NCBI GenBank assembly: GCA_023701005.1
Contig: JAMPXW010000002.1
Span: 45,347-109,346 of the forward strand
From: Burkholderiales bacterium
GTDB lineage: Bacteria; Patescibacteriota; Minisyncoccia; Phycocordibacterales; UBA9973
DNA length: 64,000 nt
Reading direction: 5' to 3'
Below are positions 3,687-58,597 of this stretch, piece after piece. Under the pieces are notes generated by a model. That model saw only the letters and a list, made by a program, of their open reading frames with translations. It was not told the origin of the DNA and did no database searches. Position numbers and translations under genes: made by a program. Each line of letters opens with the position of its first letter. Position 1 is the stretch's first letter.

Positions 3687-4034
3687 CTATCTATTAAAGG
3701 CAGGCGCAGCAGCTTCGTAATCAGTAGGCTTACCATCACGAATTCTTTCCATATTATTTATAAAAGATTTCCAAAAAATATCTACAAAAACATCATTCCA
3801 AAGATATGAAGCCGGTTGTTTTAAATACTTATTCCAAAAACTAACACTCCCTCCCCCGACATATGTTATGTTCTCTTGAGCCACAGGGCTTTCAACTACC
3901 TTTTTGACACTAATATTAAAATAACTTAAAACTAAGATCAAAATAAAACACAAAATTAAAATCCCAATCAAACTAATACCTTTATTTTCTTTTTTTGTTT
4001 TTAGCATAATATTTATATTTAACTTAGAGAACAC
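3687..4034 (-). CDS. Hypothetical membrane protein (115 aa, one TM, GTG start)
   Basis: The ORF starts with GTG. It has a hydrophobic segment 'ISLIGILILCFILILVLSYF'. No recognisable family. Confidence 0.35.
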   Translation of the reverse strand: MFSKLNINIMLKTKKENKGISLIGILILCFILILVLSYFNISVKKVVESPVAQENITYVGGGSVSFWNKYLKQPASYLWNDVFVDIFWKSFINNMERIRDGKPTDYEAAAPAFNR

Positions 4035-39040: not shown

Positions 39041-40740
39041 TAGACCTCTTTGTTATAACAATTTTCACAATATACTATTTCAGGTCTGTCAGGGGCGTAA
39101 GAAGTTTCAAATTCATTATTACAACCTTCTTTCATGCATTTACGATGCCAGAGGTTACGTGGATTTCTCAACATAAATCTATCAGTACGACGACAAGCAA
39201 AACATTTTTCAGGTATGGGTAAATTTAATATTTTATATAAAGATAATTCTAAAGAAGTAATTTTAAAAGCTGTCGTGCATAGAGGATATTCATCTTTATA
39301 ATCATTTAATTTTTGAGATGAACATTGTATTGCTTCTTCTAAAATATTTTCTTTAATTTCTGAAAAAGTTTTGGGTATTTTTTCTGCAGGGATAAAAATC
39401 TTGTAATCTCTTTCTGGTCTATCGTACCATTTATAGCCCTTTCTTTTAGCTTCTTCTTTATTTAAAGGAAAATAATCTTGAGCCATAGATTCATTGTATG
39501 CAAATGGTGAAAAATTAGCTGGAAAATATTCACCCCACTCTTCTATGTCTATCATATGTTTGATTATTTTTTCTTTTAAAGAAAAATAATCTGATTTAGA
39601 ATATTGTTTATTTAAAATACAATAACTTTTTTTCTTTAAGCCAAAACATCCAAAACAATTTTCTACACCAAAACACATATCACAATAATACGAATCAGTA
39701 ATGGTACCAAAACAACTTCTAATAATCATAGATCTATGTGGTGCTTCAACACCTTGAGCTTCATAAGCTAGCTGTCCAGTAATTATTTCTGTACAATCGC
39801 GGCAATCTTCAGAATCCCATGCATCTTGCATATAAGCAGTATCTTTATTTTTATGACAATTAAAACCAAGTTTCATTCTTTGAGTATTTTCTATATAATC
39901 ACCATTAGACTGTTGAACTTGTACACCATGATAAAATTTTATAGGCATGCTAAGTCTTAATTTAAAAGCTTCTTCTTGTGATTTTTTTATAAAATCTCTA
40001 TCCCATTCAAAATTTTTAACTTTTTTTTCATATTCATCTTTTCCTATATTTTTATTAAAATAAAAATACTGTTTATTTCGAAGACCAACACAACCGAAAC
40101 AATCAGTGCATCCCTTGCAATCATTAGAAAAATAGACATTAACACAGTCAGAACAATCAGAAGACCAAAGACAATGAGAACACTTTTTAATATTAATACA
40201 CTCATAACAGTATTCGCTCTTTTCTGCTAAATAACAATCACTTAAAAAATAACAGCCCCACTGACACCAGCTTCCATACATACATTTTTCATTTGAACCA
40301 CTTGTAACAAGCATATAACAATCTTTATTGTTTTGAGATTGATTTGTATATTCGCTATTTACACTACTAGCATTAACCATAGCCAAATGTGGGACTATAT
40401 CGCGCAACTCTTCGTATTGTTCAAAAAAAGATTTATTAAAATCAAAATCTCTTCCATATTTTACAGCATCAAATTTATCTGATTTCCAATATTCTTGTTT
40501 ATAAACAGGGAAAGAAACATTTTCTCTGTAAATTGAAATTATACTTTCTCCAGTAGCATCACATTTTCTTTTATAAAAGTTATATTCATTTCTATCTAAA
40601 AGCCTACGAATATATCTGCATTCCGGGCAAAATGTCGGTGGAGGGACTTTTATTTTCTCATAAAAAGAGAAGTCATCAGGCTCTATAATAAAGTCACATT
40701 TGCAATTTTTACATATTTTGTTTTCACTTTTGTATTCCAT
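39037..40740 (-). CDS. Cys-rich zinc-ribbon paralog family protein, copy D (567 aa)
   Basis: 'CKNCKCDFIIEPDDFSFYEKIKVPPPTFCPECR' ... 'CVGLRNKQYFYFNKNIGKDEYEK' ... 'LWHRKCMKEGCNNEFETSYAPDRPEIVYCENCYNKEVY'. Confidence 0.85.
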   Translation of the reverse strand: MEYKSENKICKNCKCDFIIEPDDFSFYEKIKVPPPTFCPECRYIRRLLDRNEYNFYKRKCDATGESIISIYRENVSFPVYKQEYWKSDKFDAVKYGRDFDFNKSFFEQYEELRDIVPHLAMVNASSVNSEYTNQSQNNKDCYMLVTSGSNEKCMYGSWCQWGCYFLSDCYLAEKSEYCYECINIKKCSHCLWSSDCSDCVNVYFSNDCKGCTDCFGCVGLRNKQYFYFNKNIGKDEYEKKVKNFEWDRDFIKKSQEEAFKLRLSMPIKFYHGVQVQQSNGDYIENTQRMKLGFNCHKNKDTAYMQDAWDSEDCRDCTEIITGQLAYEAQGVEAPHRSMIIRSCFGTITDSYYCDMCFGVENCFGCFGLKKKSYCILNKQYSKSDYFSLKEKIIKHMIDIEEWGEYFPANFSPFAYNESMAQDYFPLNKEEAKRKGYKWYDRPERDYKIFIPAEKIPKTFSEIKENILEEAIQCSSQKLNDYKDEYPLCTTAFKITSLELSLYKILNLPIPEKCFACRRTDRFMLRNPRNLWHRKCMKEGCNNEFETSYAPDRPEIVYCENCYNKEVY

Positions 40741-40742
40741 GT

Positions 40743-42497
40743 TTAATACACTTCTTTATTATAACAATTTTCACAATATACTATTTCAGGTCTGTCGGGA
40801 GCGTAAGGCGTTTTGAAAGTAGCCAAACATTTACCTTGATGTCCATGACCCTCATTTTCACACATACATTCTCTACGCCAAAGTTTCATTGGATTACGTT
40901 TCTTCAACCTATTCTCATGACGACAATTAAAACAAAATCTCGGTAAAGGAACTCCTAATTTTCTATATAAATTAAATTCATCTAAGATTATTTTATAAGC
41001 TCCCCTACAATATCCACTTTCTGTATCTTTATTTTTACAACCAATAATTTCATTCAAAATTGATTCATCAACATCTCTTAAATCATCAGGCAAATCTACT
41101 GATTCAATAGTCGTCACATATTCACTCACCTTCTTGTCTCTCCACCTATAACCATTTTTTATAGCTTCTTCTTTATTTAAAGGAAAATAATCTTGAGCTT
41201 GAGTTTCGTTGTAACAAAAAGTAGACATTTCTGCAGGGAAAAATTCACCATATTTATAAATTAGACCCCTCTTGTCTATATATGGCATATCGTTCATGTG
41301 TTGTTTTATTTTTGGTATTAATTCTTCATATTCTTCTTTTGTGTATTGTTTATTTAAAATACAATATTTCTTCGTTCGAAGACCTATACATCCAAATATA
41401 TTGTCACAACCATGACAATTGAAAGAATATTCTACATTATTAGAACTATAAACAACACTAGTAAATAAATTACGAAAATTCCCTATTCCTGTATCAAAAG
41501 ACTCATACAATAATTCACCATCTCCAACTCCGGGGCCAGAATCATATGCATCTTTTAAGAAATAAGCTGCCCAATGAATAAATTTACAATCTTCTATTCT
41601 ATTTCCAACTGCATCAAAAGAATATCTACAATTTTTTACACCTTCTAAATTATCCCCCGTTGAATTCATTACTTTATTTTGGTTTGAAAAACGATGCAAA
41701 GATTTTGAATGAATTTCTTTAAATTTTTCTTTCAATTCTTCAACAACTTTATAACTTTTTAAATTTATTTCTGACAATCGGCTTAAATATTCATCCCTAG
41801 AAAGTTGCTCATTCCACATACAATACGATTTATTACGTAAATTTGTGCAACCAAAACAATTTATACAACCATGACAATCATATAGAAAATAAGAATCTAC
41901 ACAACTTTTACAATTGGTAGAGTACAAAGTCTGATAACAATCTGAACAAAATAAGTTTTCATAACAGAGTTCACATCTGTGTGCTACATAAACATCTGAG
42001 CATTCTTTTGTCATTGTTATTCTATTAGAATATAAAGTCCTATCTATTTGCCATGAACCAGAACACAAATAACTATCTTTGCTGCCCTCCGCCACATTAC
42101 AATAATCACTATTAGTGGCTTTTATATTAGAAAGACTTTGTAATGGAATTTTATCTCTCAATTCTTTCCATTGTGTAAAAAATGTTTTAGAAAAATCATA
42201 TTCTTTTCCAAAAGAAACTGCATTCCATTCATCTCCCCACCAATACTTACTATCACAAACGACAACCTCTTCAGAAGGATGAATAAAAGAAACAAGCATC
42301 TCGTTGTGACCTGGAGCATCACATTTTCTTTTAAATAGAGACATTTCATTTCTCCAGCACAGCCTTCTAATAGTCCTACATTCTGGGCAAAATGTCGGAG
42401 GAGGAACCTTTATTTTTTCATAAAATTTAAAATCTTCTGGCTTTAATACAAAGTCTATTTTACAATTCTGGCAAATAATTTTGACTTCGTTTTCCAT
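40743..42497 (-). CDS. Cys-rich zinc-ribbon paralog family protein, copy E (584 aa)
   Basis: 'CQNCKIDFVLKPEDFKFYEKIKVPPPTFCPECR' ... 'CTNLRNKSYCMWNEQLSRDEY' ... 'CIGLRTKKYCILNKQYTKEEYEEL' ... 'PEIVYCENCYNKEVY'. Confidence 0.85.
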   Translation of the reverse strand: MENEVKIICQNCKIDFVLKPEDFKFYEKIKVPPPTFCPECRTIRRLCWRNEMSLFKRKCDAPGHNEMLVSFIHPSEEVVVCDSKYWWGDEWNAVSFGKEYDFSKTFFTQWKELRDKIPLQSLSNIKATNSDYCNVAEGSKDSYLCSGSWQIDRTLYSNRITMTKECSDVYVAHRCELCYENLFCSDCYQTLYSTNCKSCVDSYFLYDCHGCINCFGCTNLRNKSYCMWNEQLSRDEYLSRLSEINLKSYKVVEELKEKFKEIHSKSLHRFSNQNKVMNSTGDNLEGVKNCRYSFDAVGNRIEDCKFIHWAAYFLKDAYDSGPGVGDGELLYESFDTGIGNFRNLFTSVVYSSNNVEYSFNCHGCDNIFGCIGLRTKKYCILNKQYTKEEYEELIPKIKQHMNDMPYIDKRGLIYKYGEFFPAEMSTFCYNETQAQDYFPLNKEEAIKNGYRWRDKKVSEYVTTIESVDLPDDLRDVDESILNEIIGCKNKDTESGYCRGAYKIILDEFNLYRKLGVPLPRFCFNCRHENRLKKRNPMKLWRRECMCENEGHGHQGKCLATFKTPYAPDRPEIVYCENCYNKEVY

Positions 42498-42500
42498 TTT

Positions 42501-44579
42501 TTATTCCAAAATCTTTTTTAAAACATCTTCAGAAACTTCTTTTGTCTCAGTTTTAGGAATATTTTTTACTAAATCATCAAGATTAGAAGGCTCAGGAACT
42601 TTTTCTTCAGAAATTTTGACTTCTTCTTTAATTACTTTATCAGATATAAAATTCTTTAATTTATTCATTTCATCTACACTGGCTGATCTGTCTTTTGTGG
42701 ATGTTGGATGAGTATTTGATTGAGTATTTTTTAATTCACTTAAAGATATCTGTTTTACTTGTACTGGTTTTTCTTTTACTATCTCCTTTTTTATAGCCTC
42801 TGGTTCTTTTTTAGCTAAAGTCTTGTCTAATATTTCTCTTAAAGCTAAATTCTCTTTTGGTTTTTCTTTTGTAAATACCTTCTTAAAAGCAGAAAATATT
42901 TTTGGCTTTACCGGAATAAATGGTTTCTGAATATTGGGCACATTAACATTTTTGATTTCTGCTTCATTGTGTATATTTTTATCTATCCTTTCTGGATACC
43001 TTTCAGCACTATTATTCATTCCATCTTTTTGTTTAAATTCTATACCCAGATCAGCCAATGGTTTATAAAATTTAGATTCATCTTGTTTTATTTGATTTAA
43101 TGAACCTTTTATAGGTTTAACTTCTCCTGATTTTATCTTTGCTATACAATCTCTACAATAGACAGCTCTACCTGCTTCTGGTTTAAAAGGAACAAAAGTA
43201 TCTTTTTTACAAACAGAACATTGTGCGGGAAATTTCTCTACTCCAAGGCCATTGGTATCATCACCCAAAGACATTCCACTCCAATTGTTTATTTCTCTTT
43301 CTACGACTTCTCTCGATCTACAATAAAGTTCACGTGATGATTTGATAACTTCCTCTTCGACTTCTTTATTACCAGATTTTGCCATAGGAGGTAAGGTTTT
43401 TGCCGAAAAAGGACGAGATGTTATACCGTCAATCATTAATTTCAAATAAATTTTAAAGTTAGGCAAACTGACAATATCTTGAGGTGTAAATTCTGGTTCA
43501 AATTCTTTTTCTAAAAATTCTGCATCGTCAGCACCTACTCTAAATATAATCATCGTTCCAACGTTACCAAAAATAGAATCTCTCACACTTGAATTTTTGT
43601 CTGAAACTAATTGTGCAGTATACTGATGCGCCACAGTAAGATTCAATCTGTATTTTCTAGCTTCAGATAATATAGAAGCGAAAGAATCTGTAACGAAATT
43701 TTGGAATTCGTCGACATATAAATAAAAATCTTTTCTTTCATCTTCGGGTATACGGACACGTTCCATGGCAGCAAGTTGAATTTTAGTGATGAGCATACCT
43801 CCCAACAAAGAAGAGTTATCTTCACCGATACGTCCCTTAGAAACATTCACAAGGAATATCTTCCCTTCGTTCATTATGTCAAAGACATTTATTGTACTTT
43901 TTGATTGCCCAACGACATTTCTTATGATTGAAGTAGACAAGAATTGTCCAACTTTATTTTGTATAGGAGCAATAGCTTCATTTCTAAACTTATCTTGCCA
44001 AGCTTCATATTCATGAACCCAAAAAGATTTGATGACTGGATCTTTTAAATTAGAAATTATTTTCTGACGATAGTCTTTATCTACCAACATTCTAGGAATA
44101 CCGAGCATTGTGGTGCCTGGAGTATCAAGTAAAGCCAAAATGGCATTATTCAAAATATATTCCATCCTGGCAGACCAAGCATTGGCCCATATCTTCGTAA
44201 AGATCCCCATAAGTCCAGACGCCACTAAGTGTTTATATTTTGGATCAACTAATTCAAGAACATTAAATCCAATATGATAATCAGGGTCACTAGGATTAAA
44301 ATAGACAACATCTTTCATTCGATGAGGAGGAATAGCACCTAAAACACTTTCGACTAATTCTCCATGCGGGTCGACAACACAAACACCAGAACCATTTTCA
44401 ATATTCTGAACTATCATATTAAACATCAATACAGACTTACCTGTACCAGATTTTCCAAGTATATAAACATGCTGACGTCTATCTTTGCGTTTTATGCCAA
44501 AAAGCTGATTTTTATCTCTATAAGTAGTGAGCCCAATGTATGTAAGATCCTTATTTTTTGGTATCTCTTTGATATCCAT
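42501..44579 (-). CDS. VirD4/TraD/HerA-like P-loop ATPase, copy 2 (692 aa), with a C-terminal zinc ribbon and a K/E-rich low-complexity tail
   Basis: Walker A 'YILGKSGTGKSVLM'. 'VVDPHGE'. Walker B 'FYLYVDEFQN'. 'LNLTVAHQY'. C-terminal 'CSVCKKDTFVPFKPEAGRAVYCRDC', then a K/E/P-rich tail. Confidence 0.8.
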   Translation of the reverse strand: MDIKEIPKNKDLTYIGLTTYRDKNQLFGIKRKDRRQHVYILGKSGTGKSVLMFNMIVQNIENGSGVCVVDPHGELVESVLGAIPPHRMKDVVYFNPSDPDYHIGFNVLELVDPKYKHLVASGLMGIFTKIWANAWSARMEYILNNAILALLDTPGTTMLGIPRMLVDKDYRQKIISNLKDPVIKSFWVHEYEAWQDKFRNEAIAPIQNKVGQFLSTSIIRNVVGQSKSTINVFDIMNEGKIFLVNVSKGRIGEDNSSLLGGMLITKIQLAAMERVRIPEDERKDFYLYVDEFQNFVTDSFASILSEARKYRLNLTVAHQYTAQLVSDKNSSVRDSIFGNVGTMIIFRVGADDAEFLEKEFEPEFTPQDIVSLPNFKIYLKLMIDGITSRPFSAKTLPPMAKSGNKEVEEEVIKSSRELYCRSREVVEREINNWSGMSLGDDTNGLGVEKFPAQCSVCKKDTFVPFKPEAGRAVYCRDCIAKIKSGEVKPIKGSLNQIKQDESKFYKPLADLGIEFKQKDGMNNSAERYPERIDKNIHNEAEIKNVNVPNIQKPFIPVKPKIFSAFKKVFTKEKPKENLALREILDKTLAKKEPEAIKKEIVKEKPVQVKQISLSELKNTQSNTHPTSTKDRSASVDEMNKLKNFISDKVIKEEVKISEEKVPEPSNLDDLVKNIPKTETKEVSEDVLKKILE

Positions 44580-44612: not shown

Positions 44613-46301
44613 CTAATATATTTCTTTCTGATAACAAGCCTCACAATAAACTATCTCTGGTCTTTCGGGAGCATAAGAAGTCTCAAATTCATTATTACAA
44701 CCCTCTTTCATACATTTACGATGCCAAAGTCTTGGTGGATTACGTTTTTCTACTCTCTCAAAATATCTACAATTTGGACAAAGATGTGGGATAGGAATAT
44801 TTAATTTTTTATACAATCCCAATTCATTTTGCAAGACCCTAAAAGCAGTAGTGCAATTATGATTACATTTTCCATTGTGTCCACAGCTTATTATTTCTTG
44901 TATTATATTATCTTTTATATCATTTATATCCTCTGGTAATTGATCTATCGGTAAAGTAACTTTATAATCTCTTAAATCTGCATCACGCCAACAATATCCT
45001 TTATCTTCAACTTCTTTCTTTGTCAGTGGAAAAAGTTCCTGTGCCTCAGATTCATTGTAAGCAAAAGGGCTAATCCAATATGGGAAAAATTCTCCAAATT
45101 CCTTTGTCTTTTTCATATGTTCAATTATTTTTTCTTTCAAATTCTCATATTCTTCTTTGTTGTATTTCTTATTTAAAATTGAATAAGAACCTTTCTTCAT
45201 TCCGACACAACCAAAACAATTTTCAGCAGAAGGAGAAAACAAAGAATAGTAAATATCTCGACATTGAAAACAAAAAACTGAAAAATAATTTCTCTGAGAA
45301 TTATCTGCTACAACTACTTCATAACACTGCTCTGCTTTTCCACTCATTAAACTATCATAAGTGTCTTTTGTCGTATCGCTACCAAAAATAAATCTCTGAT
45401 TTTCTCCGTTAATTACCTGGAAAGCATATTTTACATTTTTACAATTTATCAAAAAATCACCAGTAGAAATTACGGATTTTTTGATATAAGAATATTTATG
45501 AGGGAAATTAGAACAAAAATCTTTAAATTCTTTTTTATATTTTTCTACAGAATAAAAATTACTTAAATTCATCTTTTTTAATTTTATTTCATATTCTTCT
45601 TTTGTATATTGTTTATTTTTTATACAATAGCTTTTATTTCTTAAGCCAATACACATAATACAATTCAAACATCCACTCAAATCATAACCCAAAAAACAAT
45701 CCTGGCATTCTGAACAATAGGTACAATACTTAGAACGTGCTATCTTATAGCACTGCAGACATTCATAAGCGAGCTCCGCTTCTCTCATGTGCATACAGTC
45801 AAGCATATCTTTGTTGTGTTCAATATGAAAAGAATATAAAACATTTTCCGCGTGCCAACCGGAAACACACATATAACAATTTTTACTAAAAAACCAATCA
45901 TATGTATATTCACAATTTACACTTGCTACTTCATTATCATTTGTAATCGAGAGAGCAGGAACTATTAATGACAACTCTTTTAGTTGCTCAAAAAAGTTTT
46001 TAGAAAAATCAAATTCTATCCCATATTGACATGGATCCCAATTATCACTCCACCAACATTTTTGACAATAAACTGGGAATGGTGCATTTGTTGGATAAAT
46101 AGAAATTATATTTTTCTTACACAAGTCACATTCTCTTTTATATAAGGTATGGCCATTTCGAAACATCATTCGTCTCTGCATTCTACATTCCGGGCAAAAA
46201 GTTGGTGGTGGAACAACTATTTTCTCATAAAAACCAAAATCATCCGGCTCTATTGTGAAGTCTTTTTTACAGTTTTGACAATTTTTAATTTCAGATTGCA
46301 T
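44613..46301 (-). CDS. Cys-rich zinc-ribbon paralog family protein, copy F (562 aa)
   Basis: 'CQNCKKDFTIEPDDFGFYEKIVVPPPTFCPECR' ... 'CIGLRNKSYCIKNKQYTKEEYE' ... 'LWHRKCMKEGCNNEFETSYAPERPEIVYCEACYQKEIY'. Confidence 0.85.
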   Translation of the reverse strand: MQSEIKNCQNCKKDFTIEPDDFGFYEKIVVPPPTFCPECRMQRRMMFRNGHTLYKRECDLCKKNIISIYPTNAPFPVYCQKCWWSDNWDPCQYGIEFDFSKNFFEQLKELSLIVPALSITNDNEVASVNCEYTYDWFFSKNCYMCVSGWHAENVLYSFHIEHNKDMLDCMHMREAELAYECLQCYKIARSKYCTYCSECQDCFLGYDLSGCLNCIMCIGLRNKSYCIKNKQYTKEEYEIKLKKMNLSNFYSVEKYKKEFKDFCSNFPHKYSYIKKSVISTGDFLINCKNVKYAFQVINGENQRFIFGSDTTKDTYDSLMSGKAEQCYEVVVADNSQRNYFSVFCFQCRDIYYSLFSPSAENCFGCVGMKKGSYSILNKKYNKEEYENLKEKIIEHMKKTKEFGEFFPYWISPFAYNESEAQELFPLTKKEVEDKGYCWRDADLRDYKVTLPIDQLPEDINDIKDNIIQEIISCGHNGKCNHNCTTAFRVLQNELGLYKKLNIPIPHLCPNCRYFERVEKRNPPRLWHRKCMKEGCNNEFETSYAPERPEIVYCEACYQKEIY

Positions 46302-46945: not shown

Positions 46946-47025
46946 ATTTTATTTTAGAAACAATGAACTTTACTTTTTTATAATACTATTTAATTTAAAT
47001 TAAGTCAATATCTTAAATAATTAAC

Positions 47026-47057
47026 AAAAAGACGGAAGCAAGGCTTCCGTCTTTTTG
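47026..47057 (-). terminator. Rho-independent terminator of dnaK
   Basis: 'aaaaaGACGGAAGCaaggCTTCCGTCtttttg'. On the minus strand the stem is followed by a T-run immediately downstream of the dnaK stop. Confidence 0.6.
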
Positions 47058-47092
47058 TCTTCACCTACAAAATAAGTCTAAGGAGGCTATGT

Positions 47093-48985: not shown

Positions 48986-49055
48986 ATATTTTATTTAAAT
49001 TAAGCTTATAATGTTTTTGTTAATTATATCTATATTATATATAGATTTTATCTTT

Positions 49056-49089
49056 TTGCAAGTATTTTGTGGTCACGAAATACTTGCAA
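49056..49089. promoter_or_regulatory. Perfect 12-bp inverted repeat TTGCAAGTATTT-N10-AAATACTTGCAA in the divergent dnaK / PaaX-like intergenic region (candidate operator)
   Basis: Read directly from the sequence. It lies about 70 bp upstream of the dnaK start and about 30 bp upstream of the + strand regulator gene. It is not a CIRCE, HAIR or CtsR consensus. Confidence 0.4.
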
Positions 49090-49117
49090 AATACAGTATA
49101 TAGTATAATATATAAGT

Positions 49118-49630
49118 ATGTCAAGCAAACAAGAATATTCCAATAAAATACTTAAAATATTAGCTGAAAAACCAGCTGTACCTTTAGAGGCAATAAAGGA
49201 AAATAAGGATTCAAAGACAGGATATGCCCTTAATCGTTCAATAAAAAATCTTATAGAGTCTGGCTGTATCGAAATATTAAAATCAGATAATAGAGATTAT
49301 CTCAAATTAACAAAAAAAGGTAAAAATAAATTGAATTCTTTAAAACTTGAGGCCGATGGAGTACTAGTCTCTACTCATTGGGATGGATTATGGAGAATAA
49401 TTATTCTAGATATCCCAGAACAAAGAAAAAGTGAGCGAGAGGCTTTGAGATACCTACTAAAAAAAGCAAATTTCGTTTGTGTAAAAAACACTGTATGGAT
49501 ATCCCCTTTCCCTTATGAAAATCTTTTCACTAATATTAAAAAAGATTTAAACTTAGGCACAGAATTAATGATAATCGTCACAAATAAATTAGACGAAGAA
49601 ACAGCAAAAGCATTTAAATCAAGTTTTTAA
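49118..49630 (+). CDS. PaaX-like winged-helix transcriptional regulator (170 aa)
   Basis: 'HWDGLWRIIILDIPEQRKSEREALRYLLKKANFVCVKNTVWISPFP' fits the PaaX C-domain pattern WdGxW..V...iPE..R..R..LR..L...gF..l...vWisP. The N-terminus is wHTH-like. Confidence 0.55.
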   Translation: MSSKQEYSNKILKILAEKPAVPLEAIKENKDSKTGYALNRSIKNLIESGCIEILKSDNRDYLKLTKKGKNKLNSLKLEADGVLVSTHWDGLWRIIILDIPEQRKSEREALRYLLKKANFVCVKNTVWISPFPYENLFTNIKKDLNLGTELMIIVTNKLDEETAKAFKSSF

Positions 49631-51395
49631 AACCACCAGCTTGAAGATCCCAAAGTTTTTTATACAAACCATTTTCTTTCTTAGAAAGTTCTTCATGTTT
49701 TCCATCTTCTATTATTTTTCCTTTATCTAAAACAATTATTCTGTCCATCTGTCTTATCGTGGAAAGTCTATGAGCTATGACTATCGTCGTCTTCCCTTCT
49801 ATTAATTTATGCAACGCATCTTGAATCAAAGATTCTGAATGTGAATCCAAAGATGAAGTAGCCTCATCTAAAATGAGAATCGGTGCATCCTTTAATATCG
49901 CACGAGCTATAGCTACACGTTGTCTTTCTCCACCAGAAAGTTTTATTCCTCTTTCTCCGACATATGTCTCATAACCTTGTGGTAATTTATCTATAAAATC
50001 ATCACAATGGGCTAAGTGAGCGGCTTTTAAGACTTCTTCGTCAGTCGCATCTCTTCTTCCATAACGAATATTCTCCATCAAAGTACGATGAAATAAAACA
50101 GGATCTTGCGGTACGAAAGCAATCTGTTCTCTTAAATTCTCTTGAGATATTTTACTTATATCTACTCCATCGATTGTTATCTCTCCTTCTGTAAGATTAA
50201 ATAATCTCATTAAAAGACGTACGAAAGTCGTTTTACCTGCCCCTGAAGAGCCTACAATAGCTATCTTTTGTCCAGCTGGAACAATAAGCGAAAAATCATC
50301 CAACACCTTACTATTGTTATTTTTATAAACATAAGTGACTTTATTAAAAATCACTTCTCCTTTTGCATTGCTAATTTTTTTCTCAGTATTGTCTATTATT
50401 TCATAAGGAGTGCCTAAGATCAGAGCCATCTCTTGAGCATCTGCAAAACTATCGTAAAAAGTACGGACGATCATACCAAAGCTCCATAAATTTTCCAACA
50501 AACGAAGTAAATAGCTTTGTAATAAAACCATAACTGGCAAAGTAATCAAACCTAGTTTCCAGTCTCCAATAGCCAGCCAAAAAACTATAAACTCAATTAT
50601 TATCGAATAAAAACTTTGAATGGCGCCCAAGCCCTCCCATAAATACCAATTAAAAACTGTAGCTTTTCTTTGTTTTTCTATTGTTTCTCCTGTACGCTTT
50701 TCTTCAAATCTATGCCCTGTAAATATCTGGATAGAAGAGTGATTTGTAATAGCATCAGCCAATACTCCATTGGTCTTTGTATCAGCAAGAGCTGCTATGA
50801 CATCATATTTTAATTTATATCTAATATAAATAAAAGCTGTCAATAAAAATATTACACAAAAAATAGCTAACACAAGAGAATATTTAGGAAACAAAGTATA
50901 TATAGCCACCACCGTACCTACTCCTCTTATTAACAAAGGTAAACCATCCGCTATCATTCTGTCTGTTAATTTTTCAAAAGCTACTGCATATTTACTTATT
51001 TTTCTAGTTAAAGAACCACTAAAATTATTTGCAAAAAAAGAATTTGAATGCCCAATCATATAAGAAAAAGCCTGTTGCCTGAGTCCTGCCATAACCCCAG
51101 ATTCAAAATATGAAAGAGAAAACCCAGACAATCTCCTTACTCCCCAGCGAATTAAATTTAAAACTAAAATAAATATAATAATAGATTTAGCTACAGGAAC
51201 AACAGTAAAATCATTAACGCTTAAAACGTTCCATAACTTTAAAAATTGCAAAGGAATATATACATCTAAAATAGATGAAATCGTGGTAAATATGACTACA
51301 GAGAAAAAAGACACCTTAAAGTGTTTTATTACCTTCCAAAAATATTTAAGCACCAAACTTATGTGCAAATTTGAATAGTCTTTTTCCTTTTCCAT
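49614..51395 (-). CDS. ABC transporter permease/ATP-binding fusion protein (type I exporter, MsbA-like)
   Basis: Six-TM N-terminal domain. Walker A 'GSSGAGKTT'. Signature 'LSGGERQRVAIARA'. Walker B 'ILILDEATSSLD'. Confidence 0.85.
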   Translation of the reverse strand: MEKEKDYSNLHISLVLKYFWKVIKHFKVSFFSVVIFTTISSILDVYIPLQFLKLWNVLSVNDFTVVPVAKSIIIFILVLNLIRWGVRRLSGFSLSYFESGVMAGLRQQAFSYMIGHSNSFFANNFSGSLTRKISKYAVAFEKLTDRMIADGLPLLIRGVGTVVAIYTLFPKYSLVLAIFCVIFLLTAFIYIRYKLKYDVIAALADTKTNGVLADAITNHSSIQIFTGHRFEEKRTGETIEKQRKATVFNWYLWEGLGAIQSFYSIIIEFIVFWLAIGDWKLGLITLPVMVLLQSYLLRLLENLWSFGMIVRTFYDSFADAQEMALILGTPYEIIDNTEKKISNAKGEVIFNKVTYVYKNNNSKVLDDFSLIVPAGQKIAIVGSSGAGKTTFVRLLMRLFNLTEGEITIDGVDISKISQENLREQIAFVPQDPVLFHRTLMENIRYGRRDATDEEVLKAAHLAHCDDFIDKLPQGYETYVGERGIKLSGGERQRVAIARAILKDAPILILDEATSSLDSHSESLIQDALHKLIEGKTTIVIAHRLSTIRQMDRIIVLDKGKIIEDGKHEELSKKENGLYKKLWDLQAGGFKNLI

Positions 51396-51455: not shown

Positions 51456-51492
51456 CCACTTTTCCCGGGCACCTGGTGTCCGGGAAAAGTGG
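51456..51492. other. GC-rich near-perfect 18-bp hairpin (CCACTTTTCCCGGGCACC-t-GGTGTCCGGGAAAAGTGG) between paralog copy G and the ABC exporter gene
   Basis: Seen in the sequence, with one mismatch. There is no flanking T-run on either strand, so it is not a canonical intrinsic terminator. Confidence 0.4.
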
Positions 51493-51532: not shown

Positions 51533-53275
51533 TTAATAAACTTCTTGTTGATAACAACGTTCACAATAGACTATTTCTTTTCTCTCGGGGGCATAAGAAG
51601 TCTCAAATTCATTATCACATCCCTCTTTCATGCATTTTCTTTTATATAATTTGATTCCATTTCGCATTTTTATGCGTTCGAAATGCCTACAATTAGGACA
51701 AAGTCTAGGAATTGGTATATTCATTCTTTTATAAAAAGAAAGTTCTGTCTCAGTTATTTTAAAAGCTTCTGTACAAGAACCATCACAATTCGATTCAAAA
51801 TGATTATTTTTACTATGATGTAAGCATTCAATGACCTTTCCTATTATACTAGAATCAATGCTTAAAATATCATCAGCTATATCTTCCTGTTTTATATCTA
51901 TTAAATAATTTCTTTTTTCTTCTTCTCTCCATTTATAACCCTTTTCTAAAATCTCACCTTTCATTAAAGGAAAATAATCCTGAGCCAAAGATTCATTGTA
52001 ACAAAAAGGAGACAAGTCAGATGGTAAAAACTCACCATATTTATAAATTACTCCTCTCTTATCTACATACGGAAGATCATTCATATGCTGTTTTATTTTT
52101 GGCAATAATTCTTCATATGCTTCTTTTGTATATTGTTTATTTAAAATACAATATTGTTTATTTCTAAGTCCAGAACAACCAAAAATGTTTGTACATCCAG
52201 TACAACTAAATGAATATTCACAATTTTGACAACCTTTGCTGCAACGATAGTTAAATTTATTATTAAAACAATCAGAACCTACAGAAGAACATTCATAACA
52301 TAATTCAGAATTCTCCCCCCATAAAGTACAATCATAACAATCTTTAAAATTTCGTGTAAAAAAAACTTGTATATATTTACTATCTTCTCCCCCAATTACA
52401 TAATAACTTTGATGAACATTTTTAGAATTATTTATGTATTCACCAGAAACATTATTATTATATCGACCTTCTAAAAATTTTCTTATATTTTTATTTAAAA
52501 TAATATCAGTCTTCCGCTTTGTTTTTTCTAATGCTTCATAAGAACCTAAATTGAAATCCCTAATAAATTTTTCATACTCTCCCTTAGAATATTGTTTATT
52601 AAAAACAAAATACTGCTTATTTCTTAAATTAGTACAACCAAAACAAGAATTACAACCAATTAAATCTCTGGAAAACCACACATCCATGCAGTTTTCACAG
52701 TGAGAAGAAAATAAAGTTCTATAACATTTAGTAAGGGCAAAGGATTGATAACATAATTCAGATGATTCAATTCTAGTTACATCTATTGAATTTTTTGTTC
52801 TATTAATTTCAGCACTATACATTGAATCTTCTGAAATCGCTGCAACAAACACTAAATAACAATTTTTTAAATCATGAGCCCCACTACAATAATCGCTGTT
52901 AACCATATCCCAAGAAGTTTGGCTAGGAATAGGAACATCTAAAAATAATTCTTTTAATTGGATAAAAAAATTTTTATTAAAGTCATATTCTCTACCATAA
53001 TCCAAGCTATTTAATTCATCAGACCACCAAATATCTCTCTCCCAAACTTTAAAGGGTGATTCTTGTGGAACGATAGAAAAAATAGTTTTTCCTGTTTTAT
53101 CACTTATTCTCTTATATAAAACACGATAATCACGAAAAGCCATTCTCCTAATCATCCTACACTCCGGGCAAAATGTAGGTGGAGGAACCTTTATTTTTTC
53201 ATAAAATTTAAAATCTTCTTGCTCGATTATGAAGTCTTTTTTACAATTCTGACATTGTCGGGTTTCGTTTTTCAT
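51533..53275 (-). CDS. Cys-rich zinc-ribbon paralog family protein, copy G (580 aa)
   Basis: 'CQNCKKDFIIEQEDFKFYEKIKVPPPTFCPECR' ... 'CTNLRNKQYFVFNKQYSKGEYEK' ... 'CSGLRNKQYCILNKQYTKEAYEEL' ... 'EIVYCERCYQQEVY'. Confidence 0.85.
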   Translation of the reverse strand: MKNETRQCQNCKKDFIIEQEDFKFYEKIKVPPPTFCPECRMIRRMAFRDYRVLYKRISDKTGKTIFSIVPQESPFKVWERDIWWSDELNSLDYGREYDFNKNFFIQLKELFLDVPIPSQTSWDMVNSDYCSGAHDLKNCYLVFVAAISEDSMYSAEINRTKNSIDVTRIESSELCYQSFALTKCYRTLFSSHCENCMDVWFSRDLIGCNSCFGCTNLRNKQYFVFNKQYSKGEYEKFIRDFNLGSYEALEKTKRKTDIILNKNIRKFLEGRYNNNVSGEYINNSKNVHQSYYVIGGEDSKYIQVFFTRNFKDCYDCTLWGENSELCYECSSVGSDCFNNKFNYRCSKGCQNCEYSFSCTGCTNIFGCSGLRNKQYCILNKQYTKEAYEELLPKIKQHMNDLPYVDKRGVIYKYGEFLPSDLSPFCYNESLAQDYFPLMKGEILEKGYKWREEEKRNYLIDIKQEDIADDILSIDSSIIGKVIECLHHSKNNHFESNCDGSCTEAFKITETELSFYKRMNIPIPRLCPNCRHFERIKMRNGIKLYKRKCMKEGCDNEFETSYAPERKEIVYCERCYQQEVY

Positions 53276-53276
53276 A

Positions 53277-54974
53277 TTAATAAACTTCTTGCTGATAACA
53301 CTTCTCGCAATAAACTATCTCAGGGCGTTCGGGGGCATAAGAAGTCTCAAATTCGTTATCACATCCCTCTTTCATGCATTTCCTATGCCAAAGCTTCATT
53401 GGGTTTTTAAGACTAAGCCTCATTTTATATCTTTCATCTTGATGAATTCTAGGTAATGGAATATCCATACGACGATAAAATTCTAATTCAAAAGGAGTAA
53501 TTTTAAAAGCTTTTTTTGTTATCAAACATTCTATAACTTCATTTAGAATAGAATGATCTACATCTTTTATATCATCTGGAATTTCTTCAGCTTTTTTTGT
53601 TATCACATATTTATTGTCGATCTTCTCTTTATATGAATATCCATTTTTTAATATTTCTTCTTTTGTAAGCAAAAAATGATCATTTGCAACTGTTTCATTA
53701 TATCCAAATGGAGAAAACTCAAAAGGAAAAAATTCACCATATTTATAAATATTACCAATACTATCTATGTAAGGCATCTCATCCATTTGTTTTTTTATTT
53801 TTCCTACTAATTCAAAGTATTCTTCCTTTGTATATTCTTTATTTAAAATACAATATTCTTTATTTCTTAAACCAACACAACCGAAAATATAACTAGAAGA
53901 TCCACAATAATCACTATATTCAACATGGCTTAAAGCTGGATAACCAGTAGTTATAAATTTTAAATTTTGACTATTTGTTGCACCACCAGAACTAAACTCA
54001 TAGACCAATTCTCCACTTAAATGACAAGTATCCATTACATCTTTTGAATTAACATCCCTATATGTATATTTTGAATTTTCAGTACCATAAGAATTAAAAA
54101 TGAAATTAGAAGATTTACAATTTCTTATATCATCCCCTTTTGAATTTATACAATTTGTTGTTCTAGCATATTTTCTTGGAAATTTTAATGAAAAATCCCA
54201 AAATTTATCAAAATTTTCTTTAAAAAATTTATAACTTCCAATATTTAAATTTTTTATTTTTTCAAAATATTCGTCTTTATCATATTCTTTATTCCAAATA
54301 CAATATTTTTTATTTCGTAAATTTACACAACCAAAACAATTCTGACAATTGACACAATCTAAAACGAAATTGGAATCAATACACGAAGAAGACCAATAAC
54401 AATATTTACAATTATAATTTTTTGTACATCCAATATTTTGATATATTAATTCACTTTCAGTTATATTATAAGAATCTACTACTAATTTTGAATTATCGAT
54501 ATTGCTTGAATAATAAACATTTTCTGAGCCAAATATAACAGAATATGAGAGATAAGCATTTTTTGCACCATCAACAAAATTAGCATATTCTACATTCAAA
54601 CAATTGCCAACTTGCCTAATAGCTGGACGAGGCACCTTATTAAACAATTCTCTCCATTGCACAAAAAAAGATTTTTTAAAATCATATTCTTGACTATATT
54701 TTAATGAATCCCAATCATCACTTTTCCAACATTCTGCACAATATACTGGGAAAACAACATTGGCATCATATACTGCAATTATTTTCTTATTACATAGGTC
54801 ACAACTGCGTTTATATAGAGAGCGCTCATTTCTCCAAATTAATCTACGAACAAGTCGACACTCCGGGCAAAATGTAGGTGGAGGAACCTTTATTTTTTCA
54901 TAAAATTTAAAATCTTCTTGCTCTATCTGAAAGTCTTTTTTACAATTCTGACATTGTCTTATCTCATTTTTCAT
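53277..54974 (-). CDS. Cys-rich zinc-ribbon paralog family protein, copy H (565 aa)
   Basis: 'CQNCKKDFQIEQEDFKFYEKIKVPPPTFCPECR' ... 'CVNLRNKKYCIWNKEYDKDEY' ... 'CVGLRNKEYCILNKEYTKEEYFEL' ... 'LWHRKCMKEGCDNEFETSYAPERPEIVYCEKCYQQEVY'. It lies 1 nt from copy G. Confidence 0.85.
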   Translation of the reverse strand: MKNEIRQCQNCKKDFQIEQEDFKFYEKIKVPPPTFCPECRLVRRLIWRNERSLYKRSCDLCNKKIIAVYDANVVFPVYCAECWKSDDWDSLKYSQEYDFKKSFFVQWRELFNKVPRPAIRQVGNCLNVEYANFVDGAKNAYLSYSVIFGSENVYYSSNIDNSKLVVDSYNITESELIYQNIGCTKNYNCKYCYWSSSCIDSNFVLDCVNCQNCFGCVNLRNKKYCIWNKEYDKDEYFEKIKNLNIGSYKFFKENFDKFWDFSLKFPRKYARTTNCINSKGDDIRNCKSSNFIFNSYGTENSKYTYRDVNSKDVMDTCHLSGELVYEFSSGGATNSQNLKFITTGYPALSHVEYSDYCGSSSYIFGCVGLRNKEYCILNKEYTKEEYFELVGKIKKQMDEMPYIDSIGNIYKYGEFFPFEFSPFGYNETVANDHFLLTKEEILKNGYSYKEKIDNKYVITKKAEEIPDDIKDVDHSILNEVIECLITKKAFKITPFELEFYRRMDIPLPRIHQDERYKMRLSLKNPMKLWHRKCMKEGCDNEFETSYAPERPEIVYCEKCYQQEVY

Positions 54975-55087: not shown

Positions 55088-56869
55088 TTATATAAATTCT
55101 GCTTGATAACATTTTTCACAATATACTATTTCTTTTCTCTCGTCACTTATCGCTGTTTTAAATTCATTCTGACATGGGTTATCTCCATGGTCATGTTTTA
55201 TTGTATTTTTATATTCTTTATTACTTGATTCTACACCATTACACATACATTTTCTATACCAAAGTTTGGGTGGATTCTTTATCTTTAAACGCTCTCCGTA
55301 ACGACAATTTGGGCACAATCTTGAAAGAGCTACTTTCATTTGTCGATGAAAAGATAACTCATTTGGTAAAATACGAAATGCATTTGTGCATTGTTGATTA
55401 CATTCTCCTTTATGTGCGCACTCAAAAACCTCATTTAATATATCATCAGACACAATATCTATATCATCTGGCATGTCTTCTGATTTTTTGGTTATTTTAT
55501 AATCTCTTTCTTTTTCATCATACCATTTAAAACCTTTCTTAATTGCTTCTTCTTTCGTCAATGGAAAATAATTTTGAGCCTGCGTCTCATTATAAGACCA
55601 AGAGGATAATTCATAAGGAAAAAATTCTCCGTATTTATATACTCTTCCTTTACTATCTATATATGGCATATCATTCATATGCTTTGTTATCTTAAAGACT
55701 AGCTCTTCATATTCTTCTTTTGTGTATTGTTTATTCAAAATACAATAAGATTTATTTCTTAATTTAGTACAACCAAAAAGATTATTACAAAAATAAACTC
55801 TATCGGAATAAATGATATCTGTTGATTCATTACAACCACGACTTAAAAAACATCTTTGCGAATGTTCAACCCCATTAACTTCATATAATAAATTCGAAAC
55901 GTCTCCTCCAAAAGTAACATCAATACTATCTTTTAAGAGCAAACCTCCTAAAAAAATAAATTTACAATCTTCTACTCCTCTTAAAACAGAAAAACAATTC
56001 TTACAATTCTTAGTATTTTGAATATCATCACCAGATATATTTACAGAATTTTTTATATAAGCAAATTTCCTTGGAATTTGATAATAAAATTTCCAAAACT
56101 CTTCTTTTGCTTTTTGTAAAATCTTGTAATTACCCAAGTTCCATCTTTCTATCTCTTTTTTATATTCTTCTTTTGTATATTGTTTGTTAAAAATACAATA
56201 TTTTTGATTTCTTAAGTTCACACAACCGAAACAGTTAGAACAACCTACACAATTAAAAAGAAAGGCTGAATCAATACATTCATCTGAAAAATAAATAAAT
56301 TTTGTATTATATCCAGAATTAGAATTCAAATTTTCGTATACATGATCTACATTTAAAACACCATCCGAATCTATTGAATCCTTAGAAAAAACAGGAACCT
56401 GGCAATTATAACAATTTATAGATTCATACCCATCAAAACAAAGTACACAATTTTTAGATCGTGTGTTCCCATTAGAATAGAAACAGTCAATAGACCCTTT
56501 TTGAAAAATCGACTGAAAAGGTACAACCTTTAATAAGTCTTTAAATTGTTCAAAAAATGACCTAGAGAAATCATAATCCCTGCCATAATCCGTAGCATCC
56601 CAAGAATCTTTCCACCAACAATCTGAACAATAAACTAAAAAAGAATTTTCCTTGTTATATATACTTATTATTTCTTTTTTACAACTATCACAATTTATTT
56701 TATACAGAGATCTATTCTCTCTATAACATAAACGTCTCACGAGTCTGCACTCTGGACACCAAGTTGGCGGAGGGACTTTTATTTTTTCATAAAATTTAAA
56801 ATCTTCTGGCTCGATTATGAAGTCTTGTTTACAATTTTGGCATATCTTGTTTTCACTTTTATATTCCAT
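55088..56869 (-). CDS. Cys-rich zinc-ribbon paralog family protein, copy I (593 aa)
   Basis: 'CQNCKQDFIIEPEDFKFYEKIKVPPPTWCPECR' ... 'CVNLRNQKYCIFNKQYTKEEYKKE' ... 'CTKLRNKSYCILNKQYTKEEYEEL'. There is a C-terminal insertion before 'EIVYCEKCYQAEFI'. Confidence 0.85.
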   Translation of the reverse strand: MEYKSENKICQNCKQDFIIEPEDFKFYEKIKVPPPTWCPECRLVRRLCYRENRSLYKINCDSCKKEIISIYNKENSFLVYCSDCWWKDSWDATDYGRDYDFSRSFFEQFKDLLKVVPFQSIFQKGSIDCFYSNGNTRSKNCVLCFDGYESINCYNCQVPVFSKDSIDSDGVLNVDHVYENLNSNSGYNTKFIYFSDECIDSAFLFNCVGCSNCFGCVNLRNQKYCIFNKQYTKEEYKKEIERWNLGNYKILQKAKEEFWKFYYQIPRKFAYIKNSVNISGDDIQNTKNCKNCFSVLRGVEDCKFIFLGGLLLKDSIDVTFGGDVSNLLYEVNGVEHSQRCFLSRGCNESTDIIYSDRVYFCNNLFGCTKLRNKSYCILNKQYTKEEYEELVFKITKHMNDMPYIDSKGRVYKYGEFFPYELSSWSYNETQAQNYFPLTKEEAIKKGFKWYDEKERDYKITKKSEDMPDDIDIVSDDILNEVFECAHKGECNQQCTNAFRILPNELSFHRQMKVALSRLCPNCRYGERLKIKNPPKLWYRKCMCNGVESSNKEYKNTIKHDHGDNPCQNEFKTAISDERKEIVYCEKCYQAEFI

Positions 56870-56914: not shown

Positions 56915-58597
56915 TCAATTTATGTTTTGTTTATAACATTCTTCACAAGCAATTTTCTTGTAATTCCACTCTGGTAAATAATAAGCCTTTCTATCTTTTT
57001 TACAATAACAACAAACATAATCATATGATTGAAGTACCGTTAGAGTCTTCAGGCTTTCTTTGATTCGTACATCAAAATGATATCTAGGAAGTGGGATTCC
57101 ATTTTCTCTGTAAAAAGAAAGTTCATTTCTGGCAATATTAAAACGCCAACCAGTCAAAGGACATATTAAAGCTTGGGTAATAATAGTATCGGGAACATCT
57201 TTTATATCATCAGGTAATTTGTCTGTGCTCATTCCTTCGATATTGCTTTCATTTATATCTTCCCAATAACCACCAAATTTTAAAATATCTTCTTTTTTAG
57301 TATCTGGAAAATATGTAAAACTAGTAGAAAAATTAAAAGGCCCAGCGCTCATAGAATATGGTAAAAATTTACCATACTCTCCTCTTTTTTTCATATCAGA
57401 AATTATTTTATTTTTTAGTTCTTCGTATTCAACTTTTCCATATTTTTTATTTAAAATACAATATTTTTTCTTTTTTAAACCCACACAACCAAAACAATAT
57501 TCACATTCAATACATAGATCTAAATATTCAGAGTATCTAGAAGACGACCAAGAAGAATATTTCAAAGCATAACCATTAACACAGCAACTACAGTTACCTA
57601 ATAATTCAGTATACCAACAACCATCTGCATCAATATCTGATTTATGTCTCATTCCTCTAATACAATTGAAACAATCTTCTGATTCACTGATCGTATTGCA
57701 ATTATGACAATTTTTACAATCTAAAAGATAATCACCGTCAGAATCATATATTTTAAGGTTAAAATTAAGCCTATGAACAACTTCATCTTCCATAATTTCC
57801 TCAAAACGTTTTTTAAAAGATTGAATGGCTTGATATGAACCTAAATTATAAGATTTTATTTTTTCTAGATATTCTTCCCTGCTATATTCTACATTTTCGA
57901 TACAATAAGATTTGCCTCTTAAATTCCAGCACATAAAACAATTTTGACAATTTCGACAGTCATAAAGAAAATAAGAATCGATACAATCACGAGAATGTTT
58001 TGAATAAAATAACTTATAAGAATGATGGCACTCTGCAGAGTCGTAACATTTTTCTGAATTATAACAAATAGCTACATCAATAGAATTTTTAACTTTCAAA
58101 TTCCTGTATGAATACATTAAATCTTCACATTCTTCCATTGATCGTGCTAAATAACAATTTTTAGAATTCCAAACATCATCACAATAATCGCAATTAGTGT
58201 TCTTTATACCATTCTGGTGTGGACGAGGAACTTTTTTTTGAAGTTTTTGTAATTGTTCAAAAAATGGTTTATTTTCATCATAATCTTGACCATAATTCAT
58301 AGCATCCCATTTATCGCTATACCATTCTGTAGATGTATAAATAGGGTAACGATTTTTCTCTGGTAATACTGTAATCAAATTCTCTCCAGATAAATCTGAC
58401 TTACCTTTGCGAAATTTTCCAAACATCCAAAAAGATAGATGTTGTTTTATACGACAAAAATTACAAATAGTTGGTAATTCTATATCAACTTTTTTATACA
58501 AAGAAAGTTCTCCATCCGTAATGGTAAATTCATTTTTGCAGTGCTCACATTCTCTATTTCTCTGTAATCGATTCTGATTCATTATATTCAAAAACAT
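56915..58597 (-). CDS. Cys-rich zinc-ribbon paralog family protein, copy J (560 aa), the most divergent member
   Basis: 'CEHCKNEFTITDGELSLYKKVDIELPTICNFCR' ... 'CWNLRGKSYCIENVEYSREEYLEK' ... 'CVGLKKKKYCILNKKYGKVEYEEL' ... C-terminal 'ACEECYKQNIN'. Its start overlaps the end of grpE. Confidence 0.8.
   Translation of the reverse strand: MFLNIMNQNRLQRNRECEHCKNEFTITDGELSLYKKVDIELPTICNFCRIKQHLSFWMFGKFRKGKSDLSGENLITVLPEKNRYPIYTSTEWYSDKWDAMNYGQDYDENKPFFEQLQKLQKKVPRPHQNGIKNTNCDYCDDVWNSKNCYLARSMEECEDLMYSYRNLKVKNSIDVAICYNSEKCYDSAECHHSYKLFYSKHSRDCIDSYFLYDCRNCQNCFMCWNLRGKSYCIENVEYSREEYLEKIKSYNLGSYQAIQSFKKRFEEIMEDEVVHRLNFNLKIYDSDGDYLLDCKNCHNCNTISESEDCFNCIRGMRHKSDIDADGCWYTELLGNCSCCVNGYALKYSSWSSSRYSEYLDLCIECEYCFGCVGLKKKKYCILNKKYGKVEYEELKNKIISDMKKRGEYGKFLPYSMSAGPFNFSTSFTYFPDTKKEDILKFGGYWEDINESNIEGMSTDKLPDDIKDVPDTIITQALICPLTGWRFNIARNELSFYRENGIPLPRYHFDVRIKESLKTLTVLQSYDYVCCYCKKDRKAYYLPEWNYKKIACEECYKQNIN

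Follow-up and report, generated by a model that had tools for sequence, protein, structure and literature searches.

In the 64-kb window analyzed here (the whole stretch of DNA under study, 64,000 nucleotides of contig JAMPXW010000002.1), dnaK is transcribed divergently from a gene for a 170-aa protein with a PaaX_M domain. The start codons of the two genes (dnaK, 48985, minus strand; regulator, 49118, plus strand) enclose the 132-bp intergenic region that was recognized in an earlier annotation made from the sequence alone (the sequence-only reading), and this region contains a near-symmetrical palindrome. The genes for grpE (58554-59165) and dnaJ (35911-36774) are located elsewhere in the window. 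The sequence-only reading proposed the 170-aa protein as a candidate repressor acting on the palindrome, and as a possible regulator of dnaK. The conservation of the site and the persistent pairing of the two genes support this proposal, in which binding and repression are predicted events: a dimer of the adjacent 170-aa protein probably occupies the palindrome and represses both dnaK and the gene that encodes the protein.

The inverted repeat TTGCAAGTATTT-TGTGGTCACG-AAATACTTGCAA was confirmed at positions 49056-49089, and proved to belong to a longer repeat with perfect 14-bp arms, TTTTGCAAGTATTT and AAATACTTGCAAAA, around TGTGGTCACG. If one mismatch is allowed, the arms reach 18 nt with 94% complementarity and are separated by a gap of only 2 nt. 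The full repeat pattern with up to three mismatches had a single occurrence in the window and did not arise in 100 shuffled sequences; single arms with two mismatches were at chance level (17 seen compared to 21.7 expected). Perfect inverted repeats of at least 12 nt are not rare in the window, as there are at least four others, of which three are G+C-richer stems that abut runs of T or A. Thus, the case for an operator rests on conservation and not on the repeat alone. The 10 bp that had been regarded as a spacer between the arms instead form the best-conserved part of the site, in which G13, C16, and C18 are invariant.

Homologues of the 170-aa protein numbered 1639 at E <= 1e-3. The best 120 of these are 63-84% identical to it, and the named organisms among them are all Paceibacterota, Nomurabacteria or Patescibacteria. 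A protein-anchored scan with one genome per species returned 57 loci, and dnaK is situated directly upstream on the opposite strand in nearly all of those that reach far enough. The divergent pairing is retained down to ~45% identity in the regulator, and the DnaK genes that adjoin the operator in related loci are 71-95% identical. Metagenomes were scanned with the degenerate pattern CAANNNTTTYGYGNNCRCRAAANNNTTG, which produced at least 120 contigs. Approximately 82 of 120 are dnaK/regulator loci, most of which show the divergent pair with the others ending at a contig edge. The 38 matches that are not beside dnaK are mostly unrelated, and are largely in G+C-richer contigs or long hairpins; three of them (loci L130, L131, and L135) adjoin other, paralogous PaaX_M genes. 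Overall, a palindrome with the consensus CAAGTATTTCGYGRYCRCGAAATACTTG is present between dnaK and the regulator orthologue in 136 related Paceibacteria loci, with one site per locus. The sites scored 24.9-49.1 bits (median 43.7) with a position weight matrix built from the same sites. Little or no variation is seen at positions T7-T9, G11, G13, C16, C18, and A20-A21, and arm positions 4-6 and 23-25 are variable. The metagenome pattern itself fixed positions 1-3, 7-9, 11, and 13 with their mirrors, but the same centre was seen in the protein-anchored loci where it had been left unconstrained. The central dinucleotide is GT or AC, is never self-complementary, and occurs in both orientations as a non-palindromic element. 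In an upstream alignment anchored on the ATG codon, the columns are blurred by 1-nt jitter. The persistence of the repeat beside dnaK in relatives, on which the sequence-only reading had staked its proposal, is borne out. In 37 of 94 loci grpE is located within 3 kb beyond the regulator gene, always on the strand of dnaK, and dnaJ follows dnaK in 13 of 67. The regulator gene is therefore inside a loosened grpE/dnaK/dnaJ neighborhood.

Further features were observed in individual loci. The tblastn matches to dnaK fall in two or three pieces in L015 (468-2164) and L053 (1583-3364), which suggests frameshifts or assembly errors, and L015 possesses three small open reading frames (ORFs) between the operator and dnaK. 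In L029 (2791-3480) and L030 (2769-3488), operator and regulator are separated by an inserted IS200-like (Y1 transposase) gene on the strand of the regulator, and the same operator-regulator gap of ~750-800 nt is found in L078, L090, and L108. A protein identical to the 170-aa protein has been deposited under a metagenome-assembled genome of 'Burkholderiales bacterium', a source label that is probably wrong.

The sequence-only reading described the 170-aa protein as PaaX-type with an N-terminus resembling a winged helix-turn-helix. The former description holds at the level of the domain, as Pfam PaaX_M (PF20803) matched residues 86-163 with E = 1e-18, but does not extend to orthology with PaaX: the score for the TIGR02277 PaaX equivalog was 29.7 bits against a cut-off of 264.55 bits, and Pfam detected no PaaX_C domain (PF08223) in the protein. 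As PaaX_C is absent, the protein is PaaX-like and not PaaX. The latter description agrees with an AlphaFold2 model in which the N-terminal half is a winged helix, with three helices and a two-strand wing within residues 4-64; no Pfam winged-helix family scored above its cut-off for the 170-aa protein. The domain organization comprises the winged helix (residues ~1-79), a linker, and a Cas2-like PaaX_M domain (~86-163) modeled with the order beta-alpha-beta-beta-alpha-beta, and the chain ends 7 residues past this middle domain. The 28 aligned orthologues are all 160-205 aa long. The best Foldseek matches were to PaaX (8a39, 3kfw, and 3l09), and a profile search of PDB sequences yielded weak HxlR/MarR matches and no PaaX. 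The helix at residues 32-47 is nearly invariant in the 28 orthologues (Y36, A37, R40, S41, K43, N44, and L45) and is taken as the recognition helix in the model.

When 1.8 billion representative proteins were searched with a profile, 860 clusters were retrieved at E <= 1e-10 but only 18 at E <= 1e-30. The dnaK-linked group thus represents a single branch within a large family whose members are ~180-200 aa long. A paralogous branch that is ~36% identical shares a genome with the dnaK-linked one, as contig Ga0265292_1000033 includes both L127 and L180. In L178 and L180/L181, a paralogous PaaX_M regulator of 192-195 aa is encoded between gyrA and an operon for a methyltransferase, a solute-binding protein, and a T4SS pilin. 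The palindrome of this paralogue keeps the outer TTGCAA arms but differs in its core (…ATTACGCAGGGGCGTAAT…). Two copies are present, of which one precedes the ATG of the paralogue and the other the downstream operon. Sites of the TTTYGCGAYCGCRAAA type are also found 32-33 nt before start codons in L131 and L135. Possession of a cognate palindrome so placed appears to be characteristic of the family, and this strengthens the assignment of the site in the window to the adjacent protein. The 170-aa protein fits a short PaaX-like type that is characterized by a winged helix with PF20803, a length of ~170-200 aa, and a palindrome shortly before its own start; this grouping in Patescibacteria was drawn up here and is not a curated family.

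Promoter elements were identified as consensus matches only, and their conservation was counted over 115 distinct loci. Two promoters, P1 and P2, are predicted to be directed toward dnaK (Table 1). The predicted start of P1 is near 49088, which would place the operator at about +3 to +30, and the P1 -35 box overlaps the start codon of the regulator gene. A P1-type pair that ends 3-10 nt before the site, with at least 11 of 12 consensus matches, occurs in 80 of the 115 loci compared to 1 of 1150 shuffled flanks. P1 persists as TTGACA-N16-TATAAT where the regulator start codon is more distant. The predicted start of P2 is near 49027, and its -35 box consists of the outer TTG of the left arm and three flanking bases (TTGTCA, TTGCAA or TTGCTA). 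Its -10 box is an exact TATAAT in 60 loci and matches in at least five of six positions in 97, frequencies which were 2% and 19% in shuffled sequences, and the spacer is 17 nt in 81 loci. The start of dnaK is 32 nt from the site in L013, L047, and L177, which mirrors the arrangement on the regulator side, where 31-33 nt separate site and ATG in the majority of loci. The predicted regulator -10 box is 6-8 nt 5' of the ATG in 55 loci, a count made without a shuffle control. So short an interval implies that the regulator mRNA is apparently leaderless, with a predicted start at 49118. For the outer TTG/CAA of the arms, predicted -35 boxes are the better interpretation. No conservation above shuffles was seen for the mirror counterpart of P1, which would lie on the dnaK side and read across the repeat toward the regulator.

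When the window was scanned with the weight matrix, only the operator at 49059 scored above 0 bits (44.2 bits), and in none of the related loci (0.95 Mb) did a further site exceed 12 bits; a wider regulon was rejected on the basis of these scans. Copies of the repeat before grpE, for which the sequence-only reading recommended a search, were found neither there nor before dnaJ in the window. An inserted gene for a membrane protein parts the dnaK/regulator pair in L050, which is on contig JBAXXQ010000001.1, and in L055. In both cases the strong site remains close to dnaK, at 59 nt in L050 (24.9 bits) and 35 nt in L055 (39.6 bits), and nothing comparable precedes the regulator. Genes that intervene between site and dnaK run in the direction of dnaK in most loci for which ORFs were listed. 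These include a minus-strand gene for a protein of 91-92 aa in L019 (3061-3339), L033 (3041-3319), and L042/L045 (3062-3337), of which the L019 copy has a weak DUF3467 match (23.9 bits, just below the 25-bit cut-off). As this gene is on the dnaK strand past the operator, it would be co-regulated with dnaK.

Known heat-shock control elements were sought both in the window and in the related loci. The sequence-only reading reported none of the controlling inverted repeat of chaperone expression (CIRCE), HspR-associated inverted repeat (HAIR), and CtsR boxes. In agreement, the window holds no CIRCE with up to three mismatches, no HAIR, and only one chance-level CtsR match within coding sequence at ~41018. 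No CIRCE with up to three mismatches was present in 947,513 bases of the 136 related loci. Matches with two mismatches to HAIR or CtsR boxes are scattered and weak, and none is between dnaK and the regulator. When dnaK neighborhoods were searched by tblastn with HrcA (Bacillus subtilis, 1e-5), HspR, CtsR, GroEL, GroES, ClpB, and IbpA, nothing relevant was retrieved, a negative result that is weak for the divergent proteins among them. The sequence-only reading considered that hrcA and CIRCE elsewhere would weaken its interpretation, and the search of the window and of 0.95 Mb around dnaK in relatives revealed neither. The HrcA/CIRCE, HspR/HAIR, and CtsR systems were therefore rejected at dnaK, where neither their boxes nor their regulator genes were detected.

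These observations are combined in the following model. A dimer of the 170-aa protein, which has no effector-binding C-terminal domain and would dimerize through its Cas2-like domain as PaaX does, would bind the symmetric core TTTCGYGRYCRCGAAA, in which the centres of the two TTTCGYG half-sites are ~9 bp apart. The bound dimer would sit over the P1 start, in a position much like that of CIRCE at the dnaK and groE promoters of B. subtilis, and would extend over the upstream half of the -35 box of P2; in both ways it would block dnaK transcription. The same dimer would cover the -35 box of the leaderless regulator promoter and so confer autoregulation. The predicted regulon would consist of a single site that controls dnaK, the genes co-transcribed with it, and the regulator gene. 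Repression is favored by the near-consensus promoters, by the position of the site over the predicted P1 start, and by the mode of action of PaaX itself. As to the signal, the lack of an effector domain and the linkage of the gene to dnaK, and often to grpE and dnaJ, led to the guess that the repressor may respond to feedback by free DnaK or may be intrinsically heat-labile, which are the most parsimonious options but rather doubtful.

Other explanations of the palindrome deserve consideration. It might act as a nucleic acid hairpin, for example a 5'-terminal stem-loop that stabilizes the P1 dnaK mRNA or serves as a thermometer, and not as a protein site: the entire repeat would form the first ~30 nt of the dnaK mRNA if P1 is used, and CIRCE has also been reported to be active at the RNA level. 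Among 99 distinct sites, however, 86.7% of cells are paired compared to 86.3% after partners were shuffled, a value attained in 112 of 500 shuffles, and covariation between the half-sites did not exceed shuffles (score reached by 41 of 500). One-sided changes outnumber compensatory changes at pair 6/23 (42 vs. 6), pair 5/24 (34 vs. 1), and pair 4/25 (23 vs. 2). The half-sites thus vary independently, and the symmetry arises because both halves are held to one sequence, which fits a dimeric protein operator and not a selected stem. Moreover, invariance attaches to specific bases instead of to pairing, the central dinucleotide could not pair with itself in any locus, and the site co-occurs with a predicted DNA-binding protein whose paralogues own palindromes. 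The hairpin was rejected accordingly and is considered very improbable. It is also unlikely, if somewhat less so, that the palindrome is autoregulatory for the PaaX-like gene only and that dnaK is an uncontrolled neighbor. The paralogues in L131 and L135 have a similar site 32-33 nt from their own starts with no dnaK nearby, but the pairing with dnaK endures to the lowest regulator identities mentioned above, and two dnaK-strand promoter-like elements are in register with the site at frequencies far above shuffles. These elements, the direction of the inserted genes, and the retention of the site by dnaK and not by the regulator in L050 and L055 argue against pure autoregulation.

Alternatively, the protein could be a dual regulator in the manner of LysR-type proteins, which represses its own gene and activates dnaK from upstream of the P2 -35 box. 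The divergent layout of regulator and target is typical of such activators, and the centre of the site relative to P2 is upstream of most of the -35 hexamer. Nevertheless, both candidate dnaK promoters are near consensus in -35 box, spacer, and -10 box, as repressed promoters typically are and activator-dependent ones are not. Furthermore, the predicted P1 start is covered by the site, PaaX itself is a repressor, and the position is unlike the usual activator positions of -41.5 or -61.5; activation of dnaK is judged improbable. Several points do weigh against repression of dnaK and of the regulator gene by the 170-aa protein, which remains the preferred interpretation. The site is centred near -45.5 for P2 and for the regulator promoter and overlaps just 3 bp of each -35 box, which is no classic position for a repressor. 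All promoter assignments are predictions from consensus matches in A+T-rich DNA, and the first codons of the regulator gene (ATG TCA A..) may supply part of the conservation of the P1 -35 box, although the persistence of P1 where the regulator start is distant indicates that coding constraint is not a full explanation. The spacing between operator and regulator is fixed at 31-33 nt whereas that between operator and dnaK ranges from 32 to >1000 nt, a pattern for which autoregulation alone could account. The scope of the regulon was assessed with a strict pattern on 120 metagenome contigs and with loci of ~7 kb, and the search for hrcA and CIRCE spanned dnaK neighborhoods only so that either could be located elsewhere in the genome. 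In addition, the AlphaFold2 model is of moderate quality (pLDDT 78, pTM 0.47); the pLDDT value was 67 when the model was built from orthologues alone and increased to 78 when paralogues were added.

The features of the locus are collected in Table 1. The final 17 nt of the regulator gene (49614-49630) overlap the 3' end of a convergent ABC-transporter gene (49614-51395) whose product matches ABC_tran and ABC_membrane, and which is positioned between the regulator gene and grpE in many relatives. Ten paralogous cysteine-rich proteins of 560-593 aa, with pairwise identities of 29-52% and CxxC motifs common to their N- and C-termini, are encoded on the minus strand. Their genes flank the dnaK locus and part dnaK from grpE. 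The protein encoded at 44613-46301, the sole one of the ten that was examined with Pfam, produced no match. The minus-strand products of 36791-38260 and 42501-44579 also are paralogous (45% identity over 428 aa), and the P-loop motif GKSGTGKS was spotted by eye in the latter. A near-perfect 18-nt inverted repeat (CCACTTTTCCCGGGCACC / GGTGTCCGGGAAAAGTGG) at 51456-51492, between the start of the ABC-transporter gene and the end of a cysteine-rich gene, is G+C-rich beyond the norm of the window and is possibly a terminator.

Table 1. Features of the dnaK/regulator locus in the window, with palindromes of paralogues in related loci.
Feature	Position	Strand	Details
dnaK, 630 aa	47093-48985	-	ORF; ATG at 48985; predicted target gene, monocistronic within the window
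Regulator gene, 170 aa	49118-49630	+	ORF; ATG at 49118
Inverted repeat, full	49054-49091		Perfect 14-bp arms at 49054-49067 and 49078-49091
Conserved 28-bp palindromic operator (predicted)	49059-49086		CAAGTATTTTGTGGTCACGAAATACTTG; family consensus CAAGTATTTCGYGRYCRCGAAATACTTG; weight matrix score 44.2 bits
Inner core	49065-49080		TTTTGTGGTCACGAAA; consensus TTTCGYGRYCRCGAAA; best-conserved block by column counts
dnaK promoter P1 (predicted)	49095-49124	-	TTGACA 49124-49119, 18-nt spacer, TATACT 49100-49095; 11/12 matches
dnaK promoter P2 (predicted)	49034-49061	-	TTGCAA 49061-49056 in left arm, 16-nt spacer, TATAAT 49039-49034; 10/12 matches
Regulator promoter (predicted)	49084-49117	+	-35 TTGCAA 49084-49089 in right arm; -10 TAATAT 49106-49111 or TATAAT 49104-49109
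Terminator-like hairpin 3' of dnaK	47023-47059	-	17 pairs followed by T-rich tail
Cysteine-rich paralogues	11552-13270, 32393-34108, 34149-35867, 39037-40740, 40743-42497	-	Paralogy comparison
Cysteine-rich paralogues, continued	44613-46301, 51533-53275, 53277-54974, 55088-56869, 56915-58597	-	Paralogy comparison
Paralogue palindromes, L178	3930-3966, ~4630-4665		
Paralogue palindromes, L180/L181	~3945-3985, just after 4579		

Gene regulation in the Patescibacteria (candidate phyla radiation) is almost unknown because very few members have been cultivated. The locus described here provides a concrete, predicted triple of regulator, operator, and target for a core stress gene, and is conserved in at least 55 species-level genomes and in many metagenome contigs. 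Control of dnaK by a repressor and its operator is already known; what is new for dnaK is the regulator family, the operator, and the truncated two-domain organization. Literature on PaaX-like control of dnaK and on heat-shock or leaderless promoters in Patescibacteria included no report of this pairing, nor did literature on the structure and operator of PaaX. A broader possibility, put forward tentatively, is that the orthologous group acts as a proteostasis (heat-shock) repressor of the class Paceibacteria that replaces HrcA/CIRCE or HspR/HAIR, lacks a ligand domain, and is controlled in its activity either by free DnaK or by the heat stability of the repressor itself. If so, it would constitute a further family of bacterial heat-shock regulators and one case of a more general scheme, whereby each of many small winged-helix/Cas2-like repressors, translated from leaderless mRNAs, guards one palindrome; such a scheme might be a major form of transcription control in these tiny genomes. 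The 170-aa protein and a 34-bp site are small enough for work in Escherichia coli or in vitro. Confirmation would add a new protein family to the few bacterial heat-shock repressors and would reveal that the PaaX scaffold can function without its effector domain. It would also provide a template of outer -35 arms, specific inner core, and leaderless autoregulated gene with which to predict the operators of hundreds of paralogues.

The 170-aa protein is related in architecture to PaaX, the repressor of phenylacetate catabolism, of E. coli W (PDB 8A39; also 3L09 and 3KFW), in which an N-terminal winged helix is likewise followed by a Cas2-like dimerization domain. At its own promoter, PaaX exerts repression through hindrance of RNA polymerase; the inducer is bound by the C-terminal domain (PMC9493321). 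This five-helix domain, which binds phenylacetyl-CoA (PMC9493321), is missing from the 170-aa protein. The PaaX operator is TGATTC-N27-GAATCA, whereas the site here is one compact, contiguous 28-bp palindrome of other sequence, and PaaX is linked to paa genes whereas dnaK, an ABC transporter gene, and grpE are the neighbors here with no paa genes nearby. The C-terminal domain shares with Cas2 the same order of strands and helices and a YDI-like strand motif (LDIPE), and some paralogues are named Cas2 by NCBI. In contrast to Cas2, the 170-aa protein fuses this domain to a winged helix; it has no match to Pfam Cas2 (PF09827) at E <= 1, and no cas genes were found among neighboring ORFs, CRISPR arrays not having been searched for.

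Among heat-shock systems, HrcA/CIRCE resembles the dnaK locus in that a palindromic operator would separate a vegetative-type promoter from dnaK, if P1 is used, and in the location of the regulator gene in a grpE-dnaK-dnaJ neighborhood. CIRCE is located at the dnaK and groE promoters of B. subtilis, and HrcA depends on GroEL. The site described here has no likeness to TTAGCACTC-N9-GAGTGCTAA, however, the protein is of a different kind, and the regulator gene is divergent from dnaK instead of first in the operon, with no groESL seen in the loci. HspR/HAIR offers the parallel of a repressor that is mainly dedicated to, and genetically linked with, the dnaK operon. DnaK is the co-repressor of HspR, which is the model for the feedback suggested above. 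Nevertheless, HspR belongs to the MerR type and its gene is the last of the dnaK operon, and neither HAIR (CTTGAGT-N7-ACTCAAG) nor an hspR homologue was found here. The heat-shock repressor Phr of Pyrococcus also is a small, autoregulated winged-helix dimer that acts at heat-shock promoters through a palindrome of ~29 bp and has no domain for a small-molecule effector. Phr differs in being archaeal, in dimerizing by a C-terminal helix and not by a Cas2-like domain, and in targeting hsp20 and the gene for an AAA+ ATPase.

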